NCBI RefSeq assembly: GCF_964204645.1
Contig: NC_134029.1
Span: forward strand, 12,054,850-12,118,849
From: Tubulanus polymorphus
Lineage: Eukaryota > Animalia > Nemertea
DNA length: 64,000 nucleotides
Direction of reading: 5' to 3'
The translations under genes and the position numbers were made by a program. Below, in pieces: positions 1,968 through 64,000 of this stretch. Each line of letters starts with the position of its first letter. The first letter of the stretch is position 1. A model generated the notes under the pieces. That model saw only the letters and a list, made by a program, of their open reading frames with translations. It was not told the DNA's origin and made no database searches.

Positions 1968-4900
1968 TTTATATAATCATTTCAATTGAATTGTGGTTTT
2001 TGGTAATCAATATTCGCACACTTTACTGAGATTCAATCTTAGGAGTAGTTTTTATAGTACACTATAATTGAATTCATTCTATGCTAGGACACGTTCTCAT
2101 ACATATCTCAAATAGGTCTAGATTGACTTCGGTTTTTGATGATTGATACTTATACAGCATGAAAAAGACTTAATCGATAGGAGTCGTTTTTACATTTATC
2201 TCAAATACACTGACATTGGTTCTAAAGATAAATATTTATACACAATACTGAAATTAATTAATTCTATGATTGGACACATTCTTATACTAATCTCAAATAG
2301 ATTGTTTTTTAAAGATTATAACTATGACTGGTTATTAAAAATAACGTTTATACACTATAAAAATGGCTTAATGTATAGTAGGAGTCGTTTCTATACTCAT
2401 CTCAAATAAACTGACCGTTGGTTTTTGATAACTGATATTTATACACTATAAAAAGCTTAATCTATGATATGAGTCGTTTCTATACTCATGTCAAATACAC
2501 TGATTTGGTTTTTTATGACAAATAGTTATACACTATAATAAGGCTTAATCTATAGTAGGAGTTGTTTCTATACTCACCTGAAATAAACTGACTTTAGTTT
2601 TTGATGACTAATAGACACAATAAAGAGGCTTAATCTATAGTAGTAGTTGTTTCTATACTCATCTTAAATAAACTGACTGTTGGTTTTTGATAATTAGTAT
2701 TCATACTCTATACAAAAGACTTAATCTATGGAAGGAGTCGTTTCTATACTTATCTCAAATAAAGTGACTGTTGGTTTTTGATAACTAATACTTATATACT
2801 ATAAAAAGGCTTAATCTATAGTAGGAGTTGTTTCTATACTCATCTTAAATAAACTGACTGTTGGTTTTTGATAATTAATATTCAACACTGTAATCAAGCT
2901 TAATCTATAGTAGGAGTTGTTTTTATACTCATCTCAAATAAACTGACTTTAGTTTTTGATGACTAATAGACACAATGAAAAAGCTTACTCTATAGTAGGA
3001 GTCTTTCCATACTAATCTCAAATAAACTGACTTTTGGTTTTTGATGACTAATAGACACAAGAAAGAGGCTTAATCTATAGGAGTAGTTGTTTCTATTCTC
3101 ATCTCAAATAAACTGACTGTTGGTTTTCGATAATTAATATTTATATGCTATAAAAAAGCTTAATCCATAGTTGGAGTCGTTTCTATACTCATCTCAAATA
3201 GACTGATTTTGGTTTTTGATAATTAATACTTATACACCATAAAAAGACTTAATCTATAGTAGGAGTTGTTTCTATACTCATCTTAAATAAACTGACTTGG
3301 TTTTTGATAATTGATATTCAACACTATAATCAAGCTTAATCTATAGAAGGAGTCGTTTCTATACTCATCTCAAATAAACTGACTATAGTTTTTGATGACT
3401 AATAGACACAATGAAAAAGCTTACTCTATAGTAGGATTTGTTTCTATACTAATCTCAAATAAACTGACATTTGGTTTTTTGATGTCAAATAGACACAATA
3501 AAGAGGCTTAATCTATAGGAGTAATTGTTTCTATTCTCATCTCAAATAAACTGACTATTTGTTTTCGATAATTAATATTTATACACTATAAAAAAAGCTT
3601 AATCTATGGAAAGAGTCGTTCCTATACTCATGTCATATACACTGATTTGGTTTTTGATGACAAATAGTAATACACTATAAAAAGGCTTTATCTATAGTAG
3701 GAGTTGTTTCTATACATAGGCCTATCTCAAATAAACTGATTGCTGGTTTTGATAACTAATATTTGTTCACTATAAAAAAGCCTAATCTATAGTAGGAGTC
3801 ATTTCTATACTCATCTCAAAAAGACTGATTTTGTTTTTTGATAATTTATACTTATACGCTATTAAAAGATTTAATCTATAGTAGGAGTTGTTTCTATACT
3901 CATCTCAAATAAACCGACTATGGCTTTTTATAATTAATACTTACACTATAAAAAGGCTTTATCTATAGTAGGAGTTGTTTCTATACATATCTCAAATAAA
4001 CTTACTGCTGGTTTTGATAACTAATATTTATACACTATAAAAAAGCTTAATCTATAGTAGGAGTCATTTCTATACTCATCTCAAATAGACTGATTTTGGT
4101 TTTTGATAATTAATACTTATACACTATTAAAAGACTTAATCTATAGTAGGAGTTGTTTCTATACTCATCTCAAATAAACTGACTATGGCTTTTTATAATT
4201 AATACTTATACACTATAAAAAAGGCTTTATCTATAGTAGGAGTTGTTTCTATACATATCTCAAATAAACTGACTGCTGGTTTTGATAACTAATATTTATA
4301 CACTATAAAAAAGCTTAATCTATAGTAGGAGTCATTTCTATACTCATCTCAAAAAGACTGATTTTGTTTTTTGATAATTTATACTTATACGCTATTAAAA
4401 GATTTAATCTATAGTAGGAGTTGTTTCTATACTCATCTCAAATAAACCGACTATGGCTTTTTATGATTAATACTTACACTATAAAAAGGCTTTATCTATA
4501 GTAGGTGTTGTTTCTATACATATCTCAAATAAACTTACTGCTGGTTTTGATAACTAATATTTATACACTATAAAAAAGCTTAATCTATAGTAGGAGTCAT
4601 TTCTATACTCATCTCAAATAGACTGATTTTGGTTTTTGATAATTAATACTTATACACTATTAAAAGACTTAATCTATAGTAGGAGTTGTTTCTATACTCA
4701 TCTCAAATAAACTGACTATGGCTTTTTATAATTAATACTTATACACTATAAAAAAGGCTTTATCTATAGTAGGAGTTGTTTCTATACATATCTCAAATAA
4801 ACTGACTGCTGGTTTTGATAACTAATATTTATACACTATAAAAAAGCTTAATCTATAGAAGGAGTCGTTTCTATACTCATCTCAAATAGACTGATTTTGT

Positions 4901-6192
4901 TTTTTGATAATTTATACTTATACGCTATTAAAAGATTTAATCTATAGTAGGAGTTGTTTCTATACTCATCTCAAATAAACCGACTATGGCTTTTTATAAT
5001 TAATACTTACACTATAAAAAGGCTTTATCTATAGTAGGAGTTGTTTCTATACATATCTCAAATAAACTGACTGCTTTTAATTGTGTCTATTAGTCATCAA
5101 AAACTATAGTCAGTTTATTTGAGATGAGTATAGAAACGACTCCTTCTATAGATTAAGCTTGATTATAGTGTTGAATATTAATTATCAAAAACCAGCAGTC
5201 AGTTTATTTAAGATGAGTATAGAAACAACTCCTACTATAGATTAAGTCTTTTTATGGTGTATAAGTATTAATTTTCAAAAACCAAAATCAGTCTATTTGA
5301 GATGAGTATAGAAACGACTCCTACTATAGATTAAGCTTTTTTATAGTGTATAAATATTAGTTATCAAAACCAGCAGTCAGTTTATTTGAGATATGTATAG
5401 AAACAACTCCTACTATAGATAAAGCCTTTTTAATGGTGTATAAGTATTAATTATAAAAAGCCATAGTCAGTTTATTTGAGATGAGTATAGAAACAACTCC
5501 TACTATAGATTAAGTCTTTTAATAGTGTATAAGTATTAATTATCAAAAACCAAAATCAGTCTATTTGAGATCAGAATAGAAATGACTCCTACTATAGATT
5601 AAGCTTTTTTATAGTGTATAAATATTAGTTATCAAAACCAGCAGTCAGTTTATTTGAGATATGTATAGAAACAACTTCTACTATAGATTAAGCCTTTTTA
5701 TAGTGTATTACTATTTGTCATCAAAAACCAAATCCGTGTATTTTACATGAGTATAGGAATGACTCTTTCTATAGATTAAGCTTTTTTTATAGTGTATATA
5801 TATTAATTTTTGAAAACCAACAGTCAGTTTATTTGAGATGTAAGCTTTTTCATTGTGTCTATTAGTCATCAAAAACTGAAGTCAGTTTATTTGTGATGAG
5901 TATAGAAACAACTTCTATAGATTAAGCTTATGATAGTGATGAATATTAATTATCAAAAACCAACAGTCAGTTTATTTAAGATGAGTATAGAAACAACTCC
6001 TACTTTAGATTAATTCTTTTTATGGTGTATAACTATTAATTATCAAAAACCTAAATCAGTCAATTTGAGATGAGTATAGAAACAACTCTTACTATAGATT
6101 AAGCTTTTTTAAAGTGTATAAATATTAGTTATCAAAACCAGTAGTCAGTTTATTTGAGATATGTAGATAGATAGATTAAGCCTTTTTATAGT

Positions 6193-6562: not shown

Positions 6563-6640
6563 TTCATTAATACAAAATTTGAAAGTACACATTGTTCATT
6601 AATACAAAATTTTAAAGTACACATTATTCATTAATACAAA
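6563..6640. repeat. Short ~33-bp tandem repeat in the BEL 3' region
   Basis: TTCATTAATACAAAATTTGAAAGTACACATT repeated ~2.4 times, overlapping the pol stop codon. Confidence 0.7.
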
Positions 6641-9600
6641 TTGTCGGATTGCTCCACCGCCGCGATGGCGGTGATCTTCTCCTCTGCTGCAACGGCAGCA
6701 GCTCTTTTCGGTCGCACATTCGCTTCTCCCGCTGTTTTTGTAGCCGAATATTTCGATACGGATGCAAAATCGGTTGACGCATAAACTTCGAGAGGGTACA
6801 GTTTCGGCAACGCTCTATTCGTGTGACCTCTCGCGGTTTTTAACGAAACATTGCGTACTTTTCCGTCCTTTCCACGATGTAATTCCGTAATTACGCCAAG
6901 TCGCCATTTCAATCGTGGCCCATCATCGTGAATTTGAACGACCGAACCTTTTTTCACTAATTCCGTATCAACTCCCTTACATTTCTGATATTCGCACAAA
7001 TTTAACAAGTATTCACCTTTCCAGCGTCTCTTATATTCACTGAGGAGCAAGGAAATATATTTCATCCTACGTGTTAACAATTCGCGAGTGACACAAAAGT
7101 TCGGATCATTCAACTCATAATCTCGCACACTAGGTTGAGGTAACCCGGTTATCCGGTGACCGAACATTAACATGGATGGCGTCAAAGCTTCGAAATCTGA
7201 AACATCTGAAGTTAGATAGGTCAACGGCCTATCATTTAAATGAGATTCAACTTCAATTAAAAAAGTATTTAACTCATCATAGGTAAGTAGAGCTCTACCG
7301 AGTACTTTTTTTGTTATATTTTTCACCAACCCAATCAATCGTTCGTAAAACCCCCCTTGCCAGGGGGCCCTCTTAGCTATGAATTGCCATTTCACCCTGT
7401 TCACGGATAGATAGTCCGTTACTTCAACCGATGAAATAATTTCATCTATAATTTTATTCGCCGATGTAAACGTTGTTGCGTTATCAGAAACACAAGTCCT
7501 CGGCAAACCTCTACGACCTGCAAACCTACGTAACGCTAACAAAAAACAATCGGGAGTTAAATCCCGAACTAGCTCTAAATGCACTGCTCTACTGACCGCA
7601 CATGTAAATAAACAAACGTGGCATTTAGAGGTTTCGCCACCAGATCCCTTAATCACAAGTGGACCTAAATAATCAATACCAGTATGGTGAAAGACTGGAA
7701 CCTCTGAAACTCTGATACCAGGTAGTGAAGGAGGTAACGGTAAGAAAAAGGGTCTACCTTGCACACGTTTGCACTTACAGCATGATTTTAGTAGGTCCTT
7801 TACTCTTTGACGGATACTCGGTATCCAATATTTACATCGAATATCGGCAACAGTAGCATTAACGCCTTGATGCATTATTCTGAAATGTGATCGACGAATC
7901 ACCAAATTGACATACTGGTGATATTTTGGAAGCAGTATTGGTCGTTTAGCCAAATCGTCCAAATCTTCATTCTCTAACCGACCATTCGAATGAATCAAGC
8001 CATCATTACCAATAAACAACTGTAAATCTTTTATCAACCTGTCAACAACCGGAGCTCTAAATGACTTGTCACCCGACAATCGCGCAAACACCAGAGGATA
8101 TTCTGATCTTTGAATACACAATAACCACACTTTCTCAGAATTGTTTAGATCATCAGCCGAAATACTGTCAAAGTTTCTATCAGAAACTTTTACCTTACAA
8201 TTATTTATGAAACGAAGTACTAAGGTAGTCATTCTGAACAACTTAGTTAATGACGAGAAACCATCTGCATCTACTACTTTCGAAATGCCGACAGGTTCAC
8301 TTTTTTCAAGTGAAACATATTGTACACATGTAGATGTATTTATGTGTATAATCGGAATTTGATTTATTCGATCTGCGATGTCAATTGGACCGCACAACCA
8401 CTGCCCGTTAGAAAATAGGCATTGTGCAGATACGCCTCTAGTCAATAAATCAGCTGGATTTCTATCACCATTACAAAATTGCCACTTATCAAAGTCACAA
8501 ATAGATTTTATAGCACGAATTCTATTGGCAACAAATTCTGGTAATTTTTTATCACTTCTCAGCAACTCAACACAATCTGACTATCCGAATGATATTGCGT
8601 TTCGATTACAGGATACGATTGTTTTAATTCATCACAAATATATTGCCCTAATTTAGCGCCTAACATCGCGGCCATGAGTTCTAAGCGTGGAATTATGACC
8701 TGCTTCAACGGGGCTACACGGCCACGACTCAATATGAATTGAATCTTACCCCCTTGATCAAGATAAGCCACAGCGCCATAAGCCGGCTGACCGGCATCGA
8801 CAAAAACATGTAATTTTACCGGTAAATTGGTATCGAATCCATACCATCTTGGTACGTGCATATTTCTGATCGCATAATTCAGATCTGATACTATTCTTTG
8901 CCACAGCAGACCAAATTTCTCTGGTACTGGTGTATCCCAATCATATGATTCTCTCCACAATGTTTGAGTTAATATTTTCCCCCTAATAGAAATTGGTAAT
9001 ATAAGACCTAACGGATCATAAATCTTGGCTAAATTTTGAACAATAGTCCGTTTCGTAGTACCAGAGAATTCGTCTAATATAACCTTTTCTTTGAAGGTGA
9101 ATCTTGCTCAATACTCCAATTCAATCCTAAGACATTCACATGATTTGAATATTCCAATACTTTCTCAGATTCTGCCAATGAACGTACCTCTTCACTGTTT
9201 GAAGACCAGGACCTTAAATTCATTCCTGCTAGAGAAAAGATCTCTCTCGAAGACTTAAAATAATCTTAATCTTAAAATAAGCTATTCTCCTCGGAATTGC
9301 ATGATGTCAATATGTTATCTACGTAAATGTTTCGTAGAATATCGGAACTCGTTCGACAATTTTCAGTGACTACCTGATTCCGTAAATGATGTAAAATTGT
9401 GCAATTCAAAATAAATGGAGAACAGGTAGCACCAAATAATACTCGTTTGAAACGATAAGTTACTAGTTCAGAATCTGGATTTCCTGGCTCTCTAAACCAA
9501 ACGAATCTAGTTACATCCCTATCTTCAGGGTCGATGCCTATTTGGAGAAAGGCTTTTTCGATGTCCGCACAAAGACCAATCTCGTTCAATCTAAATCTCA

Positions 9601-12033
9601 ATAAGATACCTGTGAGATCGTTCTGTAGAGCTGGACCAGGTTCTAAACTATCGTTCAAACTAGGTGATCCAAAACTACAATCAAAAACAATTCGAATTGG
9701 AGTTGTATTCGATTGTCTGTACACAGGATGATGTGCCAAATAATGTACTCGTCTCGATGATGGATGTAGATCAACCACCGGAACAATCTCAATATAATCT
9801 CGTTTCAAATGCTCAACGATAATCTCCGAATAGATTTTAAGAATTTCCGGAGTTTTTGAAAGTTTCTTCAAAGTTGATTTAGTTCTATTTACAACAGCAC
9901 AATAATTAGCTGTTAACGTATCATGTTCAGTTTTCCAAGGTAATTTCACATTGTATCGACCGTCATTGTCTTTCCATATAAAATCACAAATGTACTTATC
10001 AACAAAACTCTCATCCGATAATTTTGCAATCCCAATTTCGTCACAATTCAAAGAAAATTCAGGGTATGACAAAACACTCATTATCGAAATTTTATCATTG
10101 GAAGTACCAGTCGGACCCGACACCAAATAACCAACACATGATTTTATAGCTACAGGACCTTGTTTTGATCTGATTATCTCAGAACTAACAAAATCGTAAT
10201 AATGATCGCTTCCAATCAAAAGTTGAACTTCAAATTTGCACTCGAGTGAATTGGATTAGCCAAATTTAAATCTTTGAATTCAGGAATCTCAAGAAAACCA
10301 CCCATGTCTAATGGACGTGTAATCATCGGAACCACCAAAACAGATACTTCGATTAAATACGAATTCTCACACTCGATGCATATTCTTACGACATCCAAAG
10401 TTCTAACTTTCGAATTCTGTGATTCAAATGCACCTAAATCTAGTATTTCAGTCCTACTGGATTTCAAACCTAACTGACTCGCCATTTTGGCCGTCATAAA
10501 TGATCGCTGCGAGCCATCATCGAACAATGTATTACAGGACACAATAGAACCACTATACGGGTTCTCGATATTAACAACTGCAGTCTTCAACAGAACATTT
10601 CCGAAAGATTTACACAAACTAATATTCTGAGATGCCGTTTGTGTCTCAATGTGATCATCACTTTGTATTAAAGACTCTGTTTCAAAAATCGGAACCGATG
10701 AAGACTGCGTTGTCACAGAATTTGTCATATTGCTTTTGATTCTATTTTGCTCATTGCCTATACCACGGTTTTGACCTTCCTCAACGGAAAAATTGACACC
10801 TCTAGAATTCGGAACAGAATAAGGTCATGTTTTCCGCGTTTGAAAACAAATACTGGTGTGATGTCGCTTTTTACACATACGACACGAATATTTAGACTTG
10901 CAGTTTCCGGCATGATGCTTATCTCCTAAACAATTAAAACACAAAGATTTGTTTCTCAGAATTTCCATCCTCTTTTTAACATCATTAACTACAGTGCGCT
11001 CGTTGGATGCATGCAAACCTTCGCAAAAAACACACTTCTTTTTAGAATTCTGAGCTCCGGTCGATAAGAATAATTGACTTACGGTGCTTGTAGGTTCAGT
11101 AATAGTACAATTACTCACATCTTTGACATCAAGAGATACAGTGGACTCAATAATTTCTAATTCGAATCTAAAACAATCAAGAAGAGATGTTATTGACCAT
11201 TCACAATTTTTGTTTGTGCGACACATATTTCGATAGATTTCATACGGAAGCTTTCTTATAATTATTGGTACCAACATTGCGCTGTAATTATCATGAGACG
11301 TCCCAAGTGCATTCAACTGACGCATGTGACAATTACATTCGTCGTAAAATTTACGCAGGGATGATCGTTCGTTGTTCGGTGGACTTAAATCAACAAGCGC
11401 GGAAACGTAAGCCTGTGATATCTTGTGATTCTGTCCAAATCTTGTTTTCAACAAACTAACAGCCGCTGAATAATTGTCATTCGTCAATGGCAAACCGTCA
11501 ATGCACGATCTTGCATCGCCGATTAACAAACACTTCAAATAGCTAAATTTTTCGATTTCCGAAAACTGTGAGTTGAGATGAACTGACGTTTCGAATAAAC
11601 CCCAGAACGTTGGCCACTCTTTCAAATTTCCGTTATATTTAGGAAGTTGTAACTTTGGTAGTAAAGCTGTTTTAATTTCAGTTGATCTCACTGGTGACTG
11701 TTTCTCTAGCGAAGACATTTTCCCGATTTCACGGTTAAATTTGAAAATACTGCCATTCAAATTGTTCAAATAATCTTCAGCTTCCAAAATAAATTGTTCT
11801 ATTTCATTATCAGACTGGATCTCGTCTAATAAATGGGCATCAATCATCTCTTACTGGCTGAATTTGCGTTTGAGATTGTTCAAATTAATACTAGCCTTTA
11901 GTAAGTCGTGTTCTCTGATAGCTGTATCACATGCTGAGGTAAGAGCGTTCGCGACTCTTCTGTTTGCTGAACGTCCTGCTCTCGAAAGTTTTACACCAAC
12001 TCCTGATTTTTCGGTAGCTGAATTCTCCGCCAT
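6631..12033 (-). pseudogene. BEL/Pao gag-pol polyprotein broken into at least 6 ORF pieces
   Basis: Gag LPKLQLPKYNG...W..FW and zinc knuckles (10825-11847); protease LFDDGSQRSF (10216-10728); RT ADIEKAFLQI...FGATCSPF...YVDN (9272-10219); RNase H LHVFVDAG..AYGAV...IPRLELMAA (8559-8960); integrase HHCC...GIDYLGP...SDNAT...GGFYERLI (6631-8565). Confidence 0.95.
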
Positions 12034-12381: not shown

Positions 12382-15300
12382 ATAGTGTATAAGTATTAAT
12401 TATAAAAAGCCATAGTCAGTTTATTTGAGATGAGTATAGAAACAACTACTATAGATTAAGTCTTTTAATAGTGTATAAGTATTTATTATCAAAAACCAAA
12501 ATCAGTCTATTTGAGATGAGTATAGAAACAACTCCTCCTATAGATTAAGTCTTTTTATAGTGAATAAGTATTAATTATCAAAAACCAGCAGTCAGTTTAT
12601 TTGAGATGAGTATAGAAACAACTCCTTCTATAGATTAAGCTTGATTATAGTGTTGAATATTAATTATCAAAAACCAAAATCAGTCTATTTGAGATGAGTA
12701 TAGAAACAACTCCTACTATCGATTAAGTCTTTTTATGGTGTATAAGTATTAATTATCAAAAACCAAAATCAGTCTATTTGAGATGAGTATAGAAACGACT
12801 CCTACTATAGATTAAGCTTTTTTATAGTGTATAAATATTAGTTATCAAAACCAGCAGTCAGTTTATTTGAGATATGTATAGAAACAACTCCCACTATAGA
12901 TAAAGCCTTTTATAGTGTATAAGTATTAATTATAGAAAGCCATAGTCAGTTTATTTGAGATTAGTATAGAAACGACTCCTACTATAGAGTAAGCTTTTTC
13001 ATTGTGTCTATTAGTCATCAAAAACTATAGTCAGTTTATTTGAGATGAGTATAGAAACGACTCCTTCTATAGATTAAGCTTGATTATAGTGTTGAATATT
13101 AATTATCAAAAACCAACAGTCAGTTTATTTTATTTAAGATGAGTATAGAAACAACTCCTACTATAGATTAAGTCTTTTTATGGTGTATAAGTATTAATTA
13201 TCAGTCTATTTGAGATGAGTATAGAAACGACTCCTACTTTAGATTAAGCTTTTTTATAGTGTATAAATATTAGTTATCATAACCAGCAGTCAGTTTATTT
13301 GAGATATGTATAGAAACAACTCCTACTATAGAGTAAGCTTTTTCATAGTGTATTATAAATATTAGTTATCAAAACCAGCAGTCAGTTTATTTGAGATATG
13401 TATAGAAACAACTCCTACTATAGATAAAGCCTTTTAATAGTGTATAAGTATTAATTATAAAAAGCCATAGTCAGTTTATTTGAGATGAGTATAGAAACAA
13501 CTCCTACTATAGATTAAGTCTTTTAATAGTGACTGTTGGTTTTTGATAATTAACATTCAACACTATAATCAAGCTTAATCTATAGAAGGAGTTGTTTCTG
13601 TACTCATCTAAAAAAAACTGACTTTAGTTTTTGATGACTAATAGACACAATGAAAAAGCTTACTCTATAGTAGGAATTGTTTCTATACTAATCTCAAATT
13701 AACTGACCTATGGTTTTTTGATGTCTAATAGACACAATAAAGAGGTTTAATCTATAGAATTAGTTGTTTCTATTCTCATCTCAAATAAACTGACTGTTGG
13801 TTTTCGATAATTATTATTTATATACTATAAAAAAAACTTAAAATCTATAGAAAGAGTCCTTCCTATACCCATGTCATATACACTGATTTGGTTTTTGATG
13901 ACAAATAGTTATACACTATAAAAAGGCTTAATCTATAGTAGGAGTTGTTTCTATACTCATCTCAAATAAACTGACTTTAGTTTTTGATGACTAATAGACA
14001 CAATGAAAAAGCTTACTCTATAGTAGGAGTCGTTTCTATACCAATCTCAAATAAACTGACTTTTGGTTTTTGATGACTAATAGACACAATAAAGAGGCTT
14101 AATCTATAGGAGTAGTTGTTACTATTCTCATCTCAAATAAACTGACTGTTGGTTTTCGATAATCAATATTTATACACTATAAAAAAAGCTTAATCTATAG
14201 AAAGAGTCGTTCCTATACTCATGTAAAATACACTGATTTGGTTTTTGATGACGAATAGTTATACACTATAAAAAGGCTTAATCTATAGTAGGAGTTGTTT
14301 CTTTACATATCTCAAATAAACTGACTATGGCTTTTTATAATTAATACTTATACACTATAAAAAGGCTTAATCTATAGTAGGAGTTGTTTCTTTACATATC
14401 TCAAATAAACTGACTATGGCTTTTTATAATTAATACTTATACACTATAAAAAGGCTTAATCTATAGTAGGAGTTGTTTCTATACATATCTCAAATAAACT
14501 GACTGCTGGTTTTGATAACTAATATTTATACACTATAAAAAAGCTTAATCTATAGTAGGAGTCGTTTCTATACTCATCTCAAATAGACTGATTTTGGTTT
14601 TCGATAATGAATACTTATACACTATAAAAAGACTTAATCTATATATAGTAGGTGTTGTTTCTATACTCATCTCAAATAAACTGAGTATGGCTTAATCTTA
14701 AGCCTAAAAAGGCTTAATCTATAGTAGGAGTTGTTTCTTTACATATCTCAAATAAACTGACTATGGCTTTTTATAATTAATACTTACACTATAAAAAGGC
14801 TTTATCTATAGTAGGAGTTGTTTATATGCATATCTCAAATAGACTGACTGTCGGTTTTTGATAACTAATATTTATACACTACAAAAAAGCTTAATCTATT
14901 GTAGGAGTTCTTTCTAATCTCATCTCAAATAAACTGACTTTGGTTTTTTATAATTAATACTTATACACTATAAAAAGACTTAATCTATAGTAGGAGTTGT
15001 TTGTATACTTATCTCAAATAAACTGACTGTTGGTATTTTGATAATCAATACTTATACACTATAAAAAGACATAATCTATAATAGGATTCGTTTCTATACT
15101 CATCTTACATAGACTGATTTTCGTTTTTGATGACTAATAGACACAATAAAGAGGCTTAATCTATAGGAGTAGTTGTTTCTATTCTCATCTCAAACAAACT
15201 GACTGTTGGTTATCGATAATTAATATTTATACACTATAAAAAAGCTTAATCTATAGAAAGAATCGTTCCGAAACTCATGTCAAATACACTGATTTGGTTC

Positions 15301-16825
15301 TTGATGACAAATAGTTATACACTATAAAAAGGCTTAATCTATAGTAGTTGTTGTTTCTATATATCTCAAATAAACTGACTGCTGGTTTTGATAACTAATA
15401 TTTATTCACTATAAAAAAGCTTAATCTATAGTAGGAGTCATTTCTATACTCATCTCAAATAGACTGATTTTGGTTTTTGATAATTGATACTTATACACTA
15501 TTAAAAGACTTAATCTATAGTAGGAGTTGTTTCTATACTCATCTAAAATAAACTGACTTTAGTTTTTGATGACTAATAGACACAATGAAAAAGCTTACTC
15601 TATAGTAGGAGTCGTTTCTATACTAATCTCAAATAAACTGACTTTTGGTATTTTGATGTCTATTAGACACAATAAAGAGGCTTAATCTATAGGAGTAGTT
15701 GTTACTATTCTCATCTCAAATAAACTGACTGTTGGTTTTCGATAATCAATATTTATACACTATAAAAAAAGCTTAATCTATAGAAAGAGTCGTATACTCA
15801 TGTAAAATACACTGATTTGGTTTTTGATGACAAATAGATATACACTATAAAAAGGCTTAATCTATAGTAGGAGTTGTTTCTATACATATCTCAAATAAAC
15901 TGACTGCTGGTTTTGATAACTAATATTTATACACTATAAAAAAGCTTAATCTATAGTAGGAGTCGTTTCTATACTCATCTCAAATAGACTGATTTTGGTT
16001 TTCGATAATGAATACTTATACACTATAAAAAGACTTAATCTATATATAGTAGGAGTTGTTTCTATACTCATCTCAAATAAACTGAGTATGGCTTTTTATA
16101 ATTAATACTTACACTATAAAAAGGCTTTATCTATAGTAGGAGTTGTTTATATACAAATCTCAAATAGACTGACTGTTGGTTTTTGATAACTAATATTTAT
16201 ACACTACAAAAAAGCTTAATCTATAGTAGGAGTTCTTTCTAATCTCATCTCAAATAAACTGACTTTGGTTTTTTATAATTAATACTTATATACTATAAAA
16301 AGACTTAATCTATAGTAGGAGTTGTTTGTATACTTATCTCAAATAAACTGACTGTTGGTATTTTGATAATCAATACTTATACACTATAAAAAGACATAAT
16401 CTATAGTAGGAGTTGTTTCTATACTCATCTCAAATAAACTGACTTTGGTTTTTGATAATTAATACTTATTCACTATAAAAAGATTTAATCTATAGTAGGA
16501 GTTGTTTCTATACTCATCTCAAGTAAACTGACTTTGGTGTTTGATAATTAATACATATACAATATTAAAAGACTTAATCTAGGCCTATATAAGGAGTTGT
16601 TTCTATACTTAGGCTATCTCAAATAAACTGACTTTGTTTTTTGATAACTAATATTTATACACAATTACAAGAGCCCCAAGGGGCACTATGGCAAACGTGT
16701 CAACTTTTCATAAAATGGCAAATGATGATGCATTTTGTGGGTTAAATTTGTCCAAATACACTCCCAGCTCATAGACTAGTCAATCCCAGGCTAATAATTT
16801 ACACTATTCAATTGTGTTTTCATAA

Positions 16826-18165: not shown

Positions 18166-18360
18166 AACTAGGGGTCCAGGGACACCATGTCCACTTAGAA
18201 AGTGGTTTCAATTGCTCAACTATCTAACAATTTCAATATTCAACACCCCCTGGTGACCATATTCAAAAACCAATGACCTCAAAACTCACCAATCATAGAA
18301 CATGTCAGCAGCTACGATTTTGTAATTGATTGTGATAACAAAATAAGCCTCATTACCAAT
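18166..18360 (-). mobile_element. HINE family A 3' end fragment
   Basis: Reverse complement of 47100-47289 (AACTAGGGGTCCAGGGACACCATG...). Confidence 0.8.
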
Positions 18361-19574
18361 CTACTATGGAAATACTAGGAGTCATTTCTATACTAGTAAC
18401 TCAGGACTAACTAGGACTCAGTAACGACTTACCTATTTCATGGCTGACAACTTTCACGTCGAAATTGTGTTTTGGGAGAGGTGACAAGACCTTTCCCCTT
18501 CCGATCTTTTTGATCTCCTCATTGTTTATTCTGAAAATGTAAAAAAAAACTGATTTAGCATAGGCGCCTTAATGATAACGATGGAAATTACAAAATTGCA
18601 TAGAGCTTCATGATGTTCAATCATCATATAGGCCTACATGTAGGCCTACCAATATAGGCCGAAGTGCACAACATTGTTCATACAGAAGGAAATCAAATGA
18701 GACTTCTCATAGTTACTTATCAAACTGCCAGAGCCATGAGAGCAGATACTGTGCTTAATTGAAACCATAATCTTAGAACATGTCACAAGCTTACAATTTA
18801 ACAATTGATTGTGGAAATTGTGATCGAAATTCAACAGATGTCATTTTCAAGACTGATGACACTTAAGATGTTGGCCAATTGCACGATAATTGACTGATTG
18901 CAAAAGCGCTCAAATATGATCTCTTCTCAAAGAATATCCATTACGGTAAAGATTCTAATAAAAAATGCAAAACCACTAGGAAGCTGCTGTCTCAGCATTC
19001 AGAGCAAAATTTACATTTTTGGGCAAATGACCACCACCACACATCCACTCGACTCAATTTGCCTTATGCTGATGGGCCTTGGGGGGATACAATTATCGCT
19101 GAAAGATTAAGACAATGAATTGATTTCAACATTTGCCTTGAAAACATCAAAAATGTTTAAAAAGTGCTGATTTCAGTGAACAAAATGGCCACCAGTTGGC
19201 CATCTTGTTTCTGACCGTGCCAATTTTTTCGGCTGAAGATGTACCTACGGTGGGCCTAGATGCATGTTTAATTTCAATTCCTAAACGATCAATTGAAAAC
19301 TTCTTCCAATTCTTAAATAGCTTGAGTCCAACTACTGACCCGCATAGGCCTAAGCACAAACGAAAACTTTAAGTGAACGCAATAACCTCAAGTCCAAGTA
19401 GTCTAAAAACTACTGAAAAGTGCGGATTTCGGCAAACAACAATGGCTGCCAGTTGCCCATCTTGAATATGATCGGGCCAGTTTTTAGGCTGCAGATGGTG
19501 TCGGTTCAACTCTGGATTAGGTCAATATAGTTCTGTCATGGTGGGTTTTCTTTTATGAAGTGAGTGGTTCGGTT

Positions 19575-37681: not shown

Positions 37682-39374
37682 TTACGTTATTAGATAAGCT
37701 TTCATTTCGAAGCGCCGAATCTGGTTATGCCGAATCTGACGACCAGGTTGATGAGGTGCACGTTGGTAGTCAGCAATAAGTTCATGGCATAACTTCAAAC
37801 GAAACTGTCTACTGGTCAATGCATCAGCAGCATTGGACACCTTGTGCATTATGTATGCATTTGTTACTGCTGTGATAAGCAAGTGGCAAAAAACCTTTTT
37901 CCACCATTTCACTGAACGATGTAGTATGCTGAAATAGGAGTTGTATTGATCATTCAAATCAACTCCACCCATATACGTGTTGTAGTCCTCAATTGCATTT
38001 GGTTTTTCGATTTGTCTGTAACCATCCTCTCCTTCACGTGAACGAATACGCTTCACAGTAACACCTGCATTGCTAACAGTAGACAATACACAAACTGGGC
38101 GTTTGTCATACCAACCAATTGCTAACATGTCTGACGCGTTATGCCATAACATCAAAGGCGACATGTCCTGCAATTGTCGTTTGTTGGTGCGGGCCGTGAA
38201 TTGCTTCAGTTTTAGTGGATTTCCTGCACGATTCGCCCTAACTGTGCCACAGGCACCAATGTTTCGATCTTTTAGGTCCACAAATAATTTCACACTAGTG
38301 AAGAAATTGTCACATGTTATGACCTGGCCAGCCCGAACATTCTGCGATGCGTCCATAACAACTCGATACCCAAGGTCAACTTGACCACCGTCCGCTCCTT
38401 TGTACAGCGTCCAATTGTGGGCGTAACCAGTTTTCGACCCAGCCAGTATCCATGCTTTCATGCCCCACTTGACGGGCTTACTCTTGATGTATTGCAACAT
38501 AAAAGTTCGACCCTTGAAGGCTATCATGCCTTCATCCACGGACAGAAACTTTTCCATATGGAAGGCGTCATTCCATGCGCGAAATAGCTGTTCAATCAAA
38601 GACTTGACCTTGAATGTCCTGTCATAACCAGGCTGCCCTCTTTGAATTTGTGTTTTGTTATTCACAGGGTGCAAGAATCGTAATAGCATCAAAAACCGAT
38701 TGCGGCTCATTACGGCTCGGAATCCTGGTTTATCAGTCAGAGGATCAGTAGACCAATGTGCACGAAAAGATCCCCGATCTTCATATCCCGTCAGTAACAA
38801 CAATGCCAGGAATGCTTTCATTTCGTCACTAGTGACATTATACCAGGTTTCTAGAACACTATCAGTAGTATTTCCACTGTTTTGATATTGTTGAAAATAA
38901 CGATTTGTTTCAGTCACTGGCATGTCTATGATAGTGTCCGGAAAAGCTTTTGTGAAAAAGTCAATTGGCGTGTAGTCCGTTGTATCGAACTTGGGCTCAC
39001 CTGGATTCGGACAGTTGTACTGCGGCAACCAGTTAGGAGGGGGGTGGTTTCTATCTTCAGCCCAATCAGGATCCTGATCAATGTTGGCACCTTGTGCACG
39101 TCCACCAGGTCCACCACGACCACACACTGGGGCATGACCTCTCCTCAGCAGACTGATTATCATCACTATCAGGAGTACTATCGTCACTTACAGGACTATT
39201 TTTACCATTATTGTCACTTACTTCCGCATCTAAATCACTTCCGGGTTCACTTTCGGTTTCATTTCCGGGTTCAAAATCGCTTTCTGAACCACTTTCAGCG
39301 TTTGAGTCACTGTCATTAGAGTCACTGTCAGCAAATATCTCTCTTATTTCATGATCACTAAACCTGCGTGACAT
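37682..39374 (-). pseudogene. piggyBac (PGBD4-like) transposase with one N-terminal frameshift and no C-terminal cysteine-rich domain
   Basis: Acidic N-terminus (39078-39374 frame) followed by a 501-aa frame with SVDEGMI, TCDNFFTS, MGGVDLNDQ and KWWKKVF motifs. Confidence 0.9.
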
Positions 39375-39668: not shown

Positions 39669-39672
39669 TTAA

Positions 39673-40094
39673 GGACATTAGTTATTCTATATTGTCACCA
39701 GGCGGTGTTGAATAGTAGAATAACTTAGTATTTCCTCATTAAATTGGTACCTAGGCGTATTTTGTTACCATGCCCAATTGCAAAGTTGTAGTTTATGACA
39801 TGTTCTATGATTGTGGTGAGTTTCAAGGTCATTGGGTTTTGCATATGGTCACCAGGGGGGCATTGAATAGTAGAATTACTTAGTATTTATATCTCAAATT
39901 GGTAATGAGGCATATTTTGTTATCACACTAAATTACAAAATCGTAGCTGCTGACATGTTCTTTGATTGTAGTGAGTTTCAAGGTCATTGGTTTTTGTATA
40001 TAGTCACCAGGGGGCATTGAATATTGAAATTGCTAGATTGTTGAGCATTGGAAACCACTTCACAAGTGGGCATGGTGTCCCTGGACCACTAGTT
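39673..40094 (+). mobile_element. HINE family A 3' portion
   Basis: ~155-bp units with GGTCACCAGGGGGC and the terminal CAAGTGGGCATGGTGTCCCTGGACC(A)CTAGTT. Confidence 0.85.
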
Positions 40095-40479
40095 TCATGT
40101 AGTGTGATCTTTGGGGCAGCTAGAATGGGCTTGTCTTTTCATGTAAGGATATATTAACAGCAAATGAACATTATCGCCACATAGCCTATACCATCTTAAC
40201 TATTCTAAAACTTGTTACATCGTTACAATGTAAATCTTTCTGTAAAACTTTGAATACTGAATGATTCTTCTTCTACTGCGTCATGAAGATATAACTTGTT
40301 ATAGTTATGCGTTCTAAGAGATTTACCATGAAGGTGCTCTCTCTCCAACAATGATCTCCCTTTCTCTAGCCATTTTGCCTTGTTGTCCATTATTCTAGAC
40401 CAGCGCTGCTGACAGCAGGTGCATGCTTTCGATGAACCGACACATGACCTGGCGAACTCGCGGTATTTTACTGGTGGTC

Positions 40480-46138: not shown

Positions 46139-47289
46139 ATTTTAGCCCACTTGGGACTTTAGTCCCAGCGGGCTATTGCGTTCACTTTTCGTCCGTCGTC
46201 CGTCCGTCCGTCCGTTGTAGCGTTCATCCGTCCGTAGACGGAATCCAGTTATTTTGGGAAGTTTTGAAGACGCTTCAAGGTAATGTCTTGATATTTGGGT
46301 TACACATTTATCTACCCTAGATACATCTTCAGCCCAAAAACTGGCCCTGTCAGAATCAAGATGGCCGACTGGCAGCCATTGTTGATCGCTAAAATCAGCA
46401 CTTTTTACACATTTTTGAACTTATTGAGGGAAATTTTGTAGACGCTTTAATCAATTACCTTGATCTTTCGTATATACTTGAATCCCCCCAGGGCCTATCA
46501 GCATAACAAAAATTGGGTCGATCGGACTCAAGATGGCCGTCCTATGACCTTTTTAGTGCCCAAAAATGTCAATTTTGGCCCGAATTCTGAGTCCTGTAGC
46601 TTCATACTGGTCTGCCATTTCTCATTGTAATTGCTGATGGGTATTCTTTGGAAAGGGATGTTTTATACCTGGGATAGGTATTTTTGATCGGCCAATTATG
46701 ACGCAATTGGCGGCCATCTTGGTGTCATCAGTACTCATTCGTAGGTGGGAAAAAGTTTTTCGACATTATATTGATATCTAAGCATATTTTGTTACAACAA
46801 TTAATAAGAAAGATGTAGCTTATAACATGTTCTATGATTGTGGTGAGTTTCGAGGTCATTGGTTTTTGTATATTGCCACCAGGGGGCGTTGAATAATACA
46901 ATATCTTAGCATCTTATCAATATCTTATTTCTATATTATATTTGTACCAATGCATATTTTGTTAGCACAATCAATTGCAAAGTTGTGGCTCATGACATCG
47001 TCTATGATTGTGGTGAGTTTCAAGGACATTGGGTTTTGAATATGGTCACCAGGGGGCGTTGAATAGTAGAATAACTTAGTATTTCCATGTTAAATTGGTA
47101 ACGAGGCATATTTTGTTATCACAATAAATTACAAAATCGTAGCTGCTGACATGTTCTATGATTGTGGTTAGTTTCAAAGTCATTGGTTTTGTATATGGTC
47201 ACCAGGGGGCGTTGAATATTGAGATTGTTAGATTGTTTAGCATTTGAAGCCACTTCCCAAGTGGGCATGGTGTCCCTGGACCCCTAGTT
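46139..47289 (+). mobile_element. Complete HINE/DINE-1-like (Helentron non-autonomous) element, family A
   Basis: 5' hairpin TAGCCCACTTGGGACT-TT-AGTCCCAGCGGGCTA; (CGTC)n microsatellite; internal ~155-bp tandem units; 3' subTIR CCCAAGTGGGC (inverted copy of GCCCACTTGGG) plus short hairpin and CTAGTT; T-rich flanks. Confidence 0.85.
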
Positions 47290-54890: not shown

Positions 54891-56743
54891 CCGTATTTTC
54901 CGGTGTACAAGTCGACCCGGTGTATAAGTCAAGGTCAAATTTTGAGTTGAGTGGCTTCTTCATAAGTATACATATGTCACATTGAAAACAGTGCCGATGT
55001 CATTCTCATAGTAGTTGAGAGTATTTACCACTTATTGCATTATTAAATCATTGGGATCTGTTGTTTCTAATATTAAATTACCGGATTAGTGCTTATTGTT
55101 TGTATCCAAGTGTTGAATGTATAGTGTATATGTTGAATGCCGCGCGCCTGTAGTCTATTATTAGACTGACTGTGTATTGATTATTGGCACGCTGCCACAG
55201 CATCGCCGCTTATATAAACACTGTACAATGAATATACGCAGTTTTCTTTCTCTTTTTATTTTTAGCCCACTTGGGACTTTAGTCCCAGCGGGCTATTGCG
55301 TTCACTTTTCGTCCGTCATCCATCCGTCCGTCCGTAGACGGAATCCAGTTATTTTGGGAAGTTTTGAAGACGCTTCAAGGTAATGTCTTGATATTTGGTT
55401 TATACATGTATCTACCCTAGACACATCTTCAGCCCAAAAACTGGCCCTATCAGAATCAAGATGGCCGACTGGCAGCCATTGTTGTTCGCCAAAATCAGCA
55501 CTATTGACTGTGATCAAGACGATTTGATCAATTACCTTGATCTTTCGAATATATTTGAATCTACCAAGGGCCCATCAGCATAAGAAAAATTGGGTCCATC
55601 TGACTCAAGATGGCCGTCCTATGACCTTTTAAGTGCCCAAAAATGTCAATTTTGGCCAGAATTCTAGGTCCTGTAGCTTCCTACTGGTTTGCCATTTCTC
55701 ATTGCAATTTGTGATGGGTATTCTTTGTAAAGGGATGTTTTATACCTGAGATAGGTATTTTTGATCCGCCAATTATGACGCAATTGGCGGCCATCTTGGT
55801 GTCATTAGTACTCATTCGTAGGTGGGAAAAAGTTTTTCGACATTATATTGTTACCTAAGCATATTTTGTTACAACAATGAATTAGAAAGTTGTAGCGTAT
55901 AACGTGTTCTATGATTGGGGTGAGTTTCAAGTTAATTGTTTTTTGTATATGGCCACCAGGGGGCGTTGAATAATACAATATCTTAGTATTTCTATATTAT
56001 ATTTGTACCAATACATATTTTGTTACCGCAATCAATTGAAAAGTTGTAGCTCATGACATCATCTATGATTGTGGTGAGTTTTAAGGAAATTAGTTATGCT
56101 ATATGGTCACCAGGGGGCGTTGAATAGTAGAATAACCTTGTATTTCCTTATTATATTGGTACCTAGGCACATTTTTTGTTACCATGATCAATTACAAAGT
56201 TGTAGTTCATCACATGTTCTATGAATATGGTGAGTTACAAGGTTATTGGGTTTTGAATATGGTCACCAGGGGGCGTTGAATAGTAGATTAACTTAGTATT
56301 TCCATATTAAATTAGTAACGAGGCATTTTTTGTTATCACAATCAATTACAAAATCGTAGCTGCTGACATGTTTTATGATTGTATTGAGTTTCAAGGTCAT
56401 TGGTTTTTGTATATGGTCACCAGAGGGCGTTGAATATTGAAATTGTTAGATTGTTGAGCATTTGAAACCACTTCCCAAGTGGGCATGGTGTCCCTGGACC
56501 CCTAGTTAACATTAGTTAATTTTAAACATTTCCAAACTGTGAGAAACTATTTTTATCAACATCCTAAATTCTGATTGGTATATGAGTGTAGCCTAACATG
56601 AATTAATATTCCATTTCATCATGGCGACCTTGAACTCTAAACATCGTCAGTTTAAAACGATATCGAAAGTGTATAAGTCAACCTACGTTTTTTGGACATG
56701 ATTTTTGGTCTCAAAAACTCGACTTATACACCGGAAAATACGG
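54891..56743. mobile_element. pogo-like MITE, copy 2, interrupted by HINE-A
   Basis: Same TIRs and body as 26299-26953, reversed. Confidence 0.88.
55258..56507 (+). mobile_element. Complete HINE family A copy with four CTCF-like tandem units
   Basis: Same termini as 46139-47289; inserted in a T-run of the pogo MITE without a TSD. Confidence 0.88.
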
Positions 56744-62135: not shown

Positions 62136-62149
62136 ATTTACTCTGGTTT

Positions 62150-62574
62150 TAATGTACCCGAAAGAAGTTTTCTTAAAACTATTGATGTTTGTCCAGCATC
62201 TTTTCTGGATATTGGGAAACTCCATACATCACGACTAAAAATATCAATTACATTTATTATCCACCATTAATTATTATTATTTTTTAAAAGATTTTTCATA
62301 TCAATTAAATCTCCCTGCCATTGTTGATCTACATAACTGACCATAGTTTTATGAGTTTTATATTTTCTTACAATCTCTTTTTGTGTTGTATATGTTGGTT
62401 GTTCTAACATAAATTCATTTATATCTTTATATTTAATTAAATTTTGCCGGATTATCTTGTTTGATTCGTTGCCAAATATTTTTTTACAGAAGAATAGGCA
62501 ACCGAAATCTTAGGATTATAATATAAATTTCTTAAATATTGTTCTTTAGTATTAGGAGATTGTTTACCTCCCAT
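62150..62574 (-). pseudogene. Maverick/Polinton c-integrase (rve), N-terminal part, frameshifted and truncated
   Basis: Hand translation across frameshifts gives MGGKQSPNTKEQYLRNLYYNPK...QPTYTT..., QQWQGDLIDM..., IDIFSRDVWSFPI, matching the Maverick integrase pattern YYNP...WQADL.DM...IDVFSKYAW..P. Confidence 0.85.
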
Positions 62575-62599
62575 TTATATATCATTGATATTAACTGTT

Positions 62600-63834
62600 T
62601 ATTTTTGATATTGAATACTATGTAATTGTGAATTTGTTATATTGCGCATCAGAAATAATATATACATGCATTTTATAATTATCGATTCCTTTTTCATGAA
62701 TAATTGTATTCCATCTTTTGTATTATCTAATTTTTTACCAGAGTCATGTAATGAATTATCTTCAGTTGTTCTTAAATATAACCGTAGTGCAAATTTATTA
62801 CCAGTATAATAATCAATATATTTGATATTACAATTCTCAGATAATTAATTTTTTTCATTCGTGAAAGGTTTTTTTATTTCTACCCATTGATCTATCATTC
62901 TCATTCCTTGACAAAATATTTTATTTGCTATTCTTTCAATAGTTATTTCTACTTTTAATATCTCAGGATTATTATATTTATCAACATCTATTGTACCATT
63001 TGAATATATTTTAGTAAAAGATATTAATATACCTTTAATTGATCTCCTTGGAAAGTTTATATTTTCATTAATCATTTCATCAGCTGAATTAATACTAACA
63101 GTTTTGAATTTATCAATATAATCATATAATAATGAAAATCCTTGATTAGTTTGAATTGTCCTCTCAAAATTTTCTTTAGTTACTGTATCATATTCTATAC
63201 ATATATTCGATAATTTATAATCCATATCTTTAATTACACTCGATAATACAATTTCATTTACAGGTGCAAAAGTTATTTCGAATATTAAATCTTCTTGAAT
63301 TGCATATTTATATAATGAAGAATTATCATTTATTAATTCAAAATCTAATGGAATTTTATATTTACTTCCATAAATGTTTTTTATTAAATTATCTGCAGCA
63401 TAAGTTACTATTGTATTATTGGCTTTTGTTCTTAATTTATCTTGATTTAAGGTTGGAATACCTTGGAAAATCATATTATTTCTATTCTCTTTAGTTAACC
63501 ATAAATCTTTATAATGCACAAATAAATTATAATCATCTAATGTATAAACAGTTTCTGTTCCAATTTGTATAGTTAATTTTTGTATTGAATATCTACCAAC
63601 ATTATCTACAACATAATTATTATCATGACCAGTTATTTCTTTATCAGCTGATAGATAGATACTATTTGGGACATAAAAAGTGTTTTGATTTAATCTCAGA
63701 ATACTAACATATACAGTTTCATTCCGATTAATACTAGAAGGATTATGAATAATTATGTGATGACAACGTTCTGCTTTAATCGCATTAGATATTCTCCTAT
63801 TTTTTGAAGGATCTATATACTTCCCATTCACCAT
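62600..63834 (-). pseudogene. Maverick/Polinton (adintovirus-like) putative major capsid protein
   Basis: 329-aa ORF (HNPSSI, DNVGRY, YKDLW, IPLDFE, NICIEYD, PRRSIKGIL, NPEILKVEITIE). Homology continues past a premature TAA at 62845 (NKFALRLYLRTTEDNSLHDSGKKLDNTKDGIQL...ISDAQ). The region is intronless, very AT-rich and adjacent to the c-integrase. Confidence 0.72.
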
Positions 63835-63861
63835 TTATTTAGAAAAGAAATTACTTATTTA

Positions 63862-64000
63862 TTTTTAGGCCAACCGTAGGCTGAGCCTATTACTATACAA
63901 ATGGAGCGAATTTAAATGACATGGTTTCCAGAGTAAAGGCTGTTTGACTGTGCAACTGAGCATATATTCATACAAATCTTTCATTAGAGCATTATCCATT
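63862..64000 (+). mobile_element. HINE family B 5' end (runs out of the window)
   Basis: Reverse complement of 17950-18082; TTTTAGGCC...GAGCCTA 5' hairpin. Confidence 0.8.

Follow-up and report, generated by a model that had tools for sequence, protein, structure and literature searches.

The question raised by this locus is whether the AT-rich block near the right end of the window (by which we mean the whole stretch of 64,000 nucleotides of the nemertean Tubulanus polymorphus analysed here) is the trace of a virus-like element and, if so, what kind of element left it. The earlier note had described, at this place, a long ORF with a late premature stop and an integrase gene just downstream. 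All of these components are present on the minus strand (Table 1), in a block with a GC content of 23.6% compared with 36.3% across the window. The block is almost certainly a dead fragment of a Polinton, and by itself it is ordinary. Its relatives elsewhere in the same genome constitute a new variant of Polinton, i.e. one with a giant-virus-type intein, a VLTF3-like gene (in the subfamily termed type A), poxvirus-style gene starts and no detectable protease.

Table 1. Coordinates of the Polinton relic and adjoining features (position 1 is the first nucleotide of the window).
Feature	Position	Strand	Remarks
Whole Polinton-type element relic	62136..63867	-	Internal fragment without TIR; blastn to full copies 83% over 1,755-1,769 columns
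Major capsid protein gene, open part	62845..63834	-	329 codons (63834-62848); ends in premature in-frame stop 62845-62847
Rest of capsid gene, same frame 3' of stop	62599..62844	-	81 codons; open-frame analysis
rve integrase gene, 5' part	62136..62574	-	About codons 1-151 of 375; tblastn in two frames
TAAATG at capsid start	63832..63837	-	Poxvirus-late-type start signal (putative function)
TAAATG at integrase start	62572..62577	-	
Start of dispersed repeat bounding relic on right	63850..64000	.	91% match to repeat in L047

An unbroken sibling capsid (residues 1-415) could be aligned in one frame to positions 63831-62608 (tblastn), the relic gene also having small gaps relative to the siblings. 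The integrase ATG lies at 62574, 24 bases past the capsid frame (30 in unbroken siblings). This gene had been described as broken by frameshifts; there is indeed one frame change (near 62480-62490), together with a stop (62267-62269), but the gene is also truncated, DNA similarity to the siblings ending at 62136. In the integrase of an unbroken copy, WQGD, QFDDG and VERFN, which we take to be the D, D and E catalytic motifs, are found at 90, 153 and 188; because of the truncation at about codon 151 the relic retains only the first of them, and the chromodomain is gone as well. No other part of the element was found beside the relic in the 62 kb leftward or, past position 64000, in the next 18.6 kb rightward. 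The dispersed repeat starting at about 63850, the putative HINE-B insertion of the earlier note, has a second copy 2.4 kb further on in locus L021. Pfam searches gave no useful match for the window ORFs, and Capsid_N alone (E 0.013) for the unbroken sibling capsid.

Endogenisation had been judged fairly recent. This is true of the relatives, whose median DNA distance is 3% over 900 bases (19 sibling copies), but not of the window copy, whose capsid gene differs from those of the siblings by dN 0.10 and dS 0.52. Among 40 matches scored from 1,778 candidates, none other than the relic itself exceeds 84% identity to it. Of 177 residues that are otherwise fixed, 19 are changed in the window copy, as against 0-1 of 179 in five siblings; in a tree it clusters with the siblings (SH-aLRT 99). 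Judged from these sequence comparisons, the relic stems from a sister lineage and decayed in place, and the recent burst belongs to the siblings.

The family was searched across the 268-Mb assembly (77 contigs), whose many Wnt genes mark it as that of an animal. The window ORF gave 122 scored matches, including itself, among 1,705 candidates; the other 121 are 78-81% identical to it, most of them in open 415-codon frames, and the suspicion that intact relatives exist elsewhere in the genome is thus confirmed. At the polymerase gene, 115 intein-bearing and 150 empty sites were recorded, and since the two states exclude each other they represent at least 265 copies. When a capsid-anchored sample was counted by hand, 7 of its 12 loci with an intein and 3 of its 17 empty ones proved to be in these site lists. 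There are perhaps roughly 200 intein-bearing and 850 empty copies, i.e. about 1,000 in total, which is a crude figure, the lists being top-scored rather than random.

Type A elements span 16,437-17,435 bases (six elements), or about 16.5 kb, and carry, in order, pPolB, a zinc-finger gene on the opposite strand, ORFs of 250, 117, 73, 140, 144, 462 and 476 aa, the capsid, integrase and ATPase genes, and ORFs of 201, 125 and 108 aa. Type B elements have the integrase-ATPase block reversed and are without the zinc-finger gene. The type A pPolB, found in siblings and absent from the window, is a 1,688-aa open frame matching PF03175 (57.5 bits, cut-off 25.8). The sibling integrase matches PF00665 (40.7 bits, cut-off 32.6) and, weakly, PF00385, while the packaging ATPase matches the A32 profile PF04665 (48.7 bits, cut-off 22.8). 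AGTA-type ends with a perfect 6-bp target site duplication (TSD) were present in 7 of the 9 elements tested, with terminal inverted repeats (TIRs) of about 80-140 bp in type A and 460-620 bp in two type B elements. The relatives therefore link the capsid homologs to the Polinton core genes (pPolB, integrase, A32 ATPase and the penton discussed below), TIRs and 6-bp TSDs. The paired TIRs of one copy are 95-99% identical, TIR sequences clearly differ between copies, and inner repeats of the terminal motif occur within them (L039-L042, L027, L029, L055-L058). Two type B elements lie about 2.5 kb apart in the same orientation (L047-L050, G000:C8:5.48-5.51 Mb). The 144-aa ORF (L042:701-1132) has weak SLATT-domain matches, the best (E 4e-5) being below the cut-off.

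Could the copies be contaminating viral contigs or an assembly artefact? Their GC content is very low compared with that of the host, but they reside inside contigs of 12-32 Mb, with varied host flanks, distinct 6-bp TSDs and host-type sequence adjoining them, and we consider the chance of such an origin negligible. By eye, the copies crowd in the middle of the large contigs (for example C1, 12-22 of 32 Mb; C2, 10-17 of 32; C4, 8-19 of 27), which may reflect chromodomain targeting or survival in heterochromatin.

The virion proteins were approached through predicted structures. An unbroken sibling capsid, modelled on 83 sequences (pLDDT 91, pTM 0.89), matches the PBCV-1 capsid (E 8.7e-18, TM 0.64) as well as iridovirus and other double jelly-roll capsids in a search that included a viral library. 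The model thus shows a predicted double jelly roll, and bears out, for the unbroken sibling, the divergent capsid of this type that the earlier note had recognised in the long ORF. The 250-aa ORF, modelled on 9 sequences with moderate confidence (pLDDT 70), matches virophage and adenovirus pentons; for the mavirus penton the E value is 3.9e-9 with a TM of only 0.35-0.44, and for a PBCV-1 chain Z is 11.1 with an rmsd of 2.9 over 127 aligned residues. Its predicted fold identifies it as the penton, with a single jelly roll. An atlas search with P0002 returned unnamed viral clusters and double jelly-roll leads only.

An adenain protease was found neither among the 14 type A ORFs nor among 49 ORFs of relatives, and the adenain profile PF00770 gave nothing over the cut-off in the genome, the control genomes being silent too. 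The label "adintovirus-like" is accordingly apt only in part, no adenain protease having been detected. This gene is not universal in Polintons, as it was found in 74% of 72 of them (PMC4028283). The failure to detect it, the broken genes of many copies and the fact that no virion is known would fit an element that is now nothing but a cut-and-copy transposon, with virion genes that serve no purpose and are decaying. The capsid gene, however, appears to be under purifying selection, its dN/dS being 0.16 when 19 copies are compared with one another and 0.20 when they are compared with the window lineage, and the capsid, penton and ATPase genes are open in most copies examined; a transposon of this kind is therefore very unlikely.

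The type A pPolB contains 355 extra residues inside its motif C (YFD/SVTADTP...xN/TD, slashes marking the junctions). The insert passes the profile TIGR01445 (32.7 bits, cut-off 24.5), matches PI-PkoII (E 3e-8) and is 37% identical, over its full length, to the Mimivirus PolB intein, with which it shares the junction D/S...N/T. N-terminal splicing blocks with Ser1 and Thr-x-x-His are present in 30 of 30 loci, and the insert measures exactly 1,065 nt in 29 of 35 copies. Among the 28 colinear copies of the 35 extracted (most of them selected for their resemblance to a single copy, a choice biased towards intact ones), Ser1, Thr83, His86, Asp150, Asp337, Asn355 and Thr+1 are invariant; Asp262 is kept in 25, and three contain stops. 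The dN/dS ratio is 0.18-0.24 across the splicing and nuclease parts, compared with 0.11-0.16 in the exteins: it is 0.18-0.22 in the splicing blocks and 0.24 in the LAGLIDADG nuclease part, in which both acids are kept. These values indicate purifying selection on the intein. We regard the intein as very probably real, and its conservation suggests that it probably splices. The type A polymerase would require splicing, because the intein splits a catalytic motif and type A copies are both young and many; this requirement is weakened by the possibility that type B elements supply the polymerase in trans. The penultimate intein residue is K, V or F (12, 8 and 8 of 28) and never His, K being found in the Mimivirus intein too. 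The C-terminal end has the highest dS of the intein (L059-L088).

Occupied and empty alleles coexist in the genome. Forty capsid-anchored loci comprised 14 occupied type A copies (12 whole, 2 partial), 2 cleanly empty type A copies and 15 type B copies, all of them empty, the site not being visible in the remaining 9. Precise empty sites were seen in L146 and L159 (type A) and in 29 type B loci. The two empty type A copies have exteins that are 94-96% identical; from -64 to +36 round the intein site these copies are B-like (distance 0.10 to B, as against 0.20 to occupied A) and outside this segment A-like. Taking this mosaic into account, recombination between the subfamilies at the intein site is likely in both copies: either a B copy served as the donor in a conversion that removed the intein, or a patch entered the occupied copies together with it. 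Ongoing homing into type B was considered but is not supported, none of the 15 sampled type B copies being occupied, although empty sites abound, and the occupied copies forming one side of an N-extein branch.

The intein is not confined to this genome. Among the 120 longer homologues listed, 11 Polinton-type polymerases carry one at the same site, two of which fall into large clusters, one of 136 members (those listed lying on contigs of up to 1 Mb) and one of 121; these clusters look like further multi-copy expansions. One polymerase, P0125, has other polymerase motifs and no BLAST similarity outside the intein. In a quick tree of 68 inteins (4 of our own, 10 Polinton-type and 54 of 106 others; midpoint root, several long branches), all 14 Polinton inteins fall on one side of a branch with SH-aLRT 99, a pattern that suggests one old acquisition followed by movement between Polinton lineages. 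A reference search of 50% clusters returned a single Polinton-type row among the best 150 and did not widen the host range, and no intein was seen in 80 metagenome loci of the capsid family, only 7 of which reach motif C. In the literature searched, as far as its available text extends, neither a Polinton nor an animal chromosome has been described as containing a Hint-type intein, and in this respect the present case appears to be new.

A second unusual feature is the sequence at the gene starts. When one copy of each type was scored, 26 of 27 starts proved to read TAA/ATG behind a T/A-rich run, against a background, in the same DNA, of 121 of 1,314 ATGs (27 of 390 internal ones); in only about one case does the TAA double as the stop codon of the preceding gene. 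The capsid gene starts with TAAATG in 69 of 69 family loci fetched (duplicates included), and both starts in the window share the motif. In the capsid family from metagenomes (80 loci, 59 of them scorable for this signal), TAAATG occurs in 13 of 15 close outside relatives (44-76% identity), whereas of 44 distant ones only 3 have it. This distribution is not a matter of base composition, since the motif is present at 36-44% GC (L169-L171) and absent at 26-28% GC (L185, L186). In L197, a distant relative (37% capsid identity, 34% GC) with a different pPolB, TAAATG stands at 10 of 11 starts, and given this case several branches may have retained the signal or acquired it independently. We found no published TAAATG starts in a Polinton within the accessible literature searched. 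Depletion of TTTTTNT was considered as a poxvirus early-terminator signal and rejected as unspecific (sense strand 10 against 20.5; any TTTTT 34 against 58.8).

The zinc-finger gene of type A weakly suggests a VLTF3-like late transcription factor. A genome search with the VLTF3 profile PF04947 gave 78 matches, most over the cut-off (23-30 bits), which fall in this gene and involve the C-terminal half of the profile; hmmscan finds VLTF3 in one of four copies (E 3.6e-6), and none was recorded in the Pfam scan of the 14 type A ORFs. A distant relative, L219, has a VLTF3-like ORF (5082-5576, E 3.6e-5, just under the cut-off) and TAAATG at 0 of 11 starts, while type B has TAAATG starts but neither VLTF3 nor intein. 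Other outside relatives encode a deoxynucleoside kinase (L164:10343-10981) or a helicase-like gene in place of pPolB (L210:9970-13596). The search for a helper virus in the assembly with PF04451 gave no match (the controls being equally silent), neither the capsid alignment nor P0121 retrieved a relative when scanned against IMG/VR, and no ATPase match was found in phage records.

That VLTF3 and TAAATG do not always occur together is one of the points in favour of an autonomous nuclear Polinton virus or transposon, in which TAAATG would be a compact promoter or start context belonging to the element itself and transcribed by host Pol II (possibly aided by the VLTF3-like protein), and the intein an old passenger picked up once during co-infection in a protist or an animal. 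The very high copy number with TSDs and the separation of the Polinton inteins from the sampled PolB inteins, which implies an old acquisition, agree with it. It has more difficulty with TAAATG itself, which, placed at the start codon behind a T/A-rich run, corresponds to the poxvirus late start (PMC3061580, available part) and is limited to one clade in a way that base composition leaves unexplained. It is also at odds with the presence of internal AATAAA, which is not avoided (81 seen, 71 expected), and with the occurrence of two Nucleocytoviricota-type parts in one subtype. We consider this autonomous cycle possible but doubtful.

The likelier reading is that this high-copy Polinton, whose type A carries a predicted self-splicing intein, replicates in the manner of a virophage, at the expense of a large DNA virus of the cytoplasm; for a helper-dependent cytoplasmic cycle as such, to judge from gene content and start signals, we find the balance even. 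In such a cycle, a poxvirus-like or related virus of the Nucleocytoviricota would infect the cell and its transcription machinery would read the element's genes from TAAATG promoters, in type A with the VLTF3-like protein acting late in transcription. Splicing through Ser1, the block B Thr-His, Asn355 and Thr+1 would remove the intein from the pPolB precursor and rebuild motif C. The polymerase would then start at the TIRs to replicate the linear genome, which would be packaged by the ATPase, and the integrase would insert new copies with 6-bp duplications. Replication sites shared with large DNA viruses could have been the meeting place at which a Polinton ancestor encountered the intein and VLTF3, and the LAGLIDADG domain may spread the intein among copies. 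The hundreds of germline insertions mean that access to the nucleus is needed, a fact that a plain transposon explains equally well. More tentatively, and with rather less than even confidence, the element may be seen as an animal virophage that accounts for up to several percent of the genome, with promoters of the TAAATG type read by the helper, a late factor of its own and a working giant-virus intein.

Mavirus is an integrating virophage dependent on a large DNA virus, and it encodes pPolB, an rve integrase and a maturation protease. With Polintons/Mavericks in general, the family shares pPolB, the rve integrase, A32 ATPase, double jelly-roll capsid, penton, TIRs, 6-bp TSD and a length of 16-17 kb; the occurrence of both virion proteins in Polintons is described in PMC4028283. 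It differs from them by its Hint-LAGLIDADG intein in motif C and near-universal TAAATG, while adenain protease and phospholipase were undetected in it. The available part of a recent classification (10.64898/2026.06.19.733378) sets apart a group 1, a group 2 and an Aquintovirus-like set from animals; it also records VLTF3 for some Polinton-like viruses, and VLTF3 and SLATT are named in its figure keys. In its group 2 a helicase replaces pPolB, as in the relative L210. Adintoviruses, in the accessible text of Starrett et al. (PMC8502044), likewise have an animal host, PolB, a chromodomain rve integrase, an FtsK-type ATPase and capsid proteins, but they were gathered by the adenain gene, which was undetected here, and their PLA2X or gasdermin-like gene was not recognised in our family. 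Entomopoxvirus-associated Polinton-like viruses (PMC11296320) are integrated, have pPolB and rve integrase, and their use of a large DNA virus has been proposed or shown; they encode a maturation protease, none being detected in our family, and promoters or TAAAT are unmentioned in the available portion of that paper.

As regards the intein, the closest known system is the pol-c allele of the Mimivirus PolB, whose site is YGD/TDS (Ogata et al., PMC549080, available part): it occupies the same motif C site and has the same Ser...Asn/Thr ends, Thr-His block and two LAGLIDADG motifs, with 351 residues as compared with 355 here. By contrast, the host protein here is a protein-primed polymerase, encoded by an animal-chromosome element in more than 100 copies with empty alleles alongside. 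HNH and VSR inserts are known in the pPolB of nematode, oomycete and mollusc Polintons (Jeong et al., 10.1101/2023.08.22.554363). They too are nuclease domains within pPolB, and homing, Hint and LAGLIDADG are unmentioned in the accessible text; the present insert differs from them in having full splicing blocks and in splitting the catalytic motif. Nuclease inserts in pPolB have been suggested to result from intein invasions (Krupovic et al., PMC11071308, available part). Eukaryotic inteins are placed in fungi, algae, some protists and large DNA viruses, no animal being named in the accessible parts of two sources (PMC5784728, PMC10710043), and a relevant case is absent from the available text of PMC12220804, PMC3671162, 10.1101/2023.10.06.561300, 10.64898/2026.10.13.758929, PMC13768754 and PMC11296320.

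With more than 100 chromosomal copies of the intein and hundreds of sites that lack it, both the homing and the loss of inteins can be studied within one animal genome. The intein further bears physical witness to genes having passed between Polintons and Nucleocytoviricota, and the TAAATG signal, together with the VLTF3-like gene, bears on the question of whether animal Polintons are nuclear or, like mavirus, dependent on a large DNA virus. If the animal-virophage reading is true, no self-splicing, homing intein would have been known before to reside in the chromosomes of an animal, and this one would be common to several Polinton lineages, including a distant pPolB class.

The rest of the window contains further repetitive elements. 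An 89-bp AT-rich satellite forms two arrays (2347-6160 and 12382-16662), each of which switches orientation internally (near 5080 and 13530, respectively). It accounts for the blocks of high AT content at 2-6 kb and 12-17 kb, which had been considered as possible parts of the element. The arrays flank a retrotransposon with LTR-type ORFs on the minus strand (6634-11850; gag-, RT- and integrase-like parts), which is presumably of the Bel/Pao type. An open 501-aa transposase-like ORF, which we assume to be piggyBac-like, lies at 37685-39187 (minus strand). Finally, a dispersed repeat about 1.1 kb long, inside which a 154-bp unit is tandemly repeated, occurs at 1050-1800, 18166-19491, 39669-40095, 46328-47289 and 55428-56514, and also in L021, L043 and L051.
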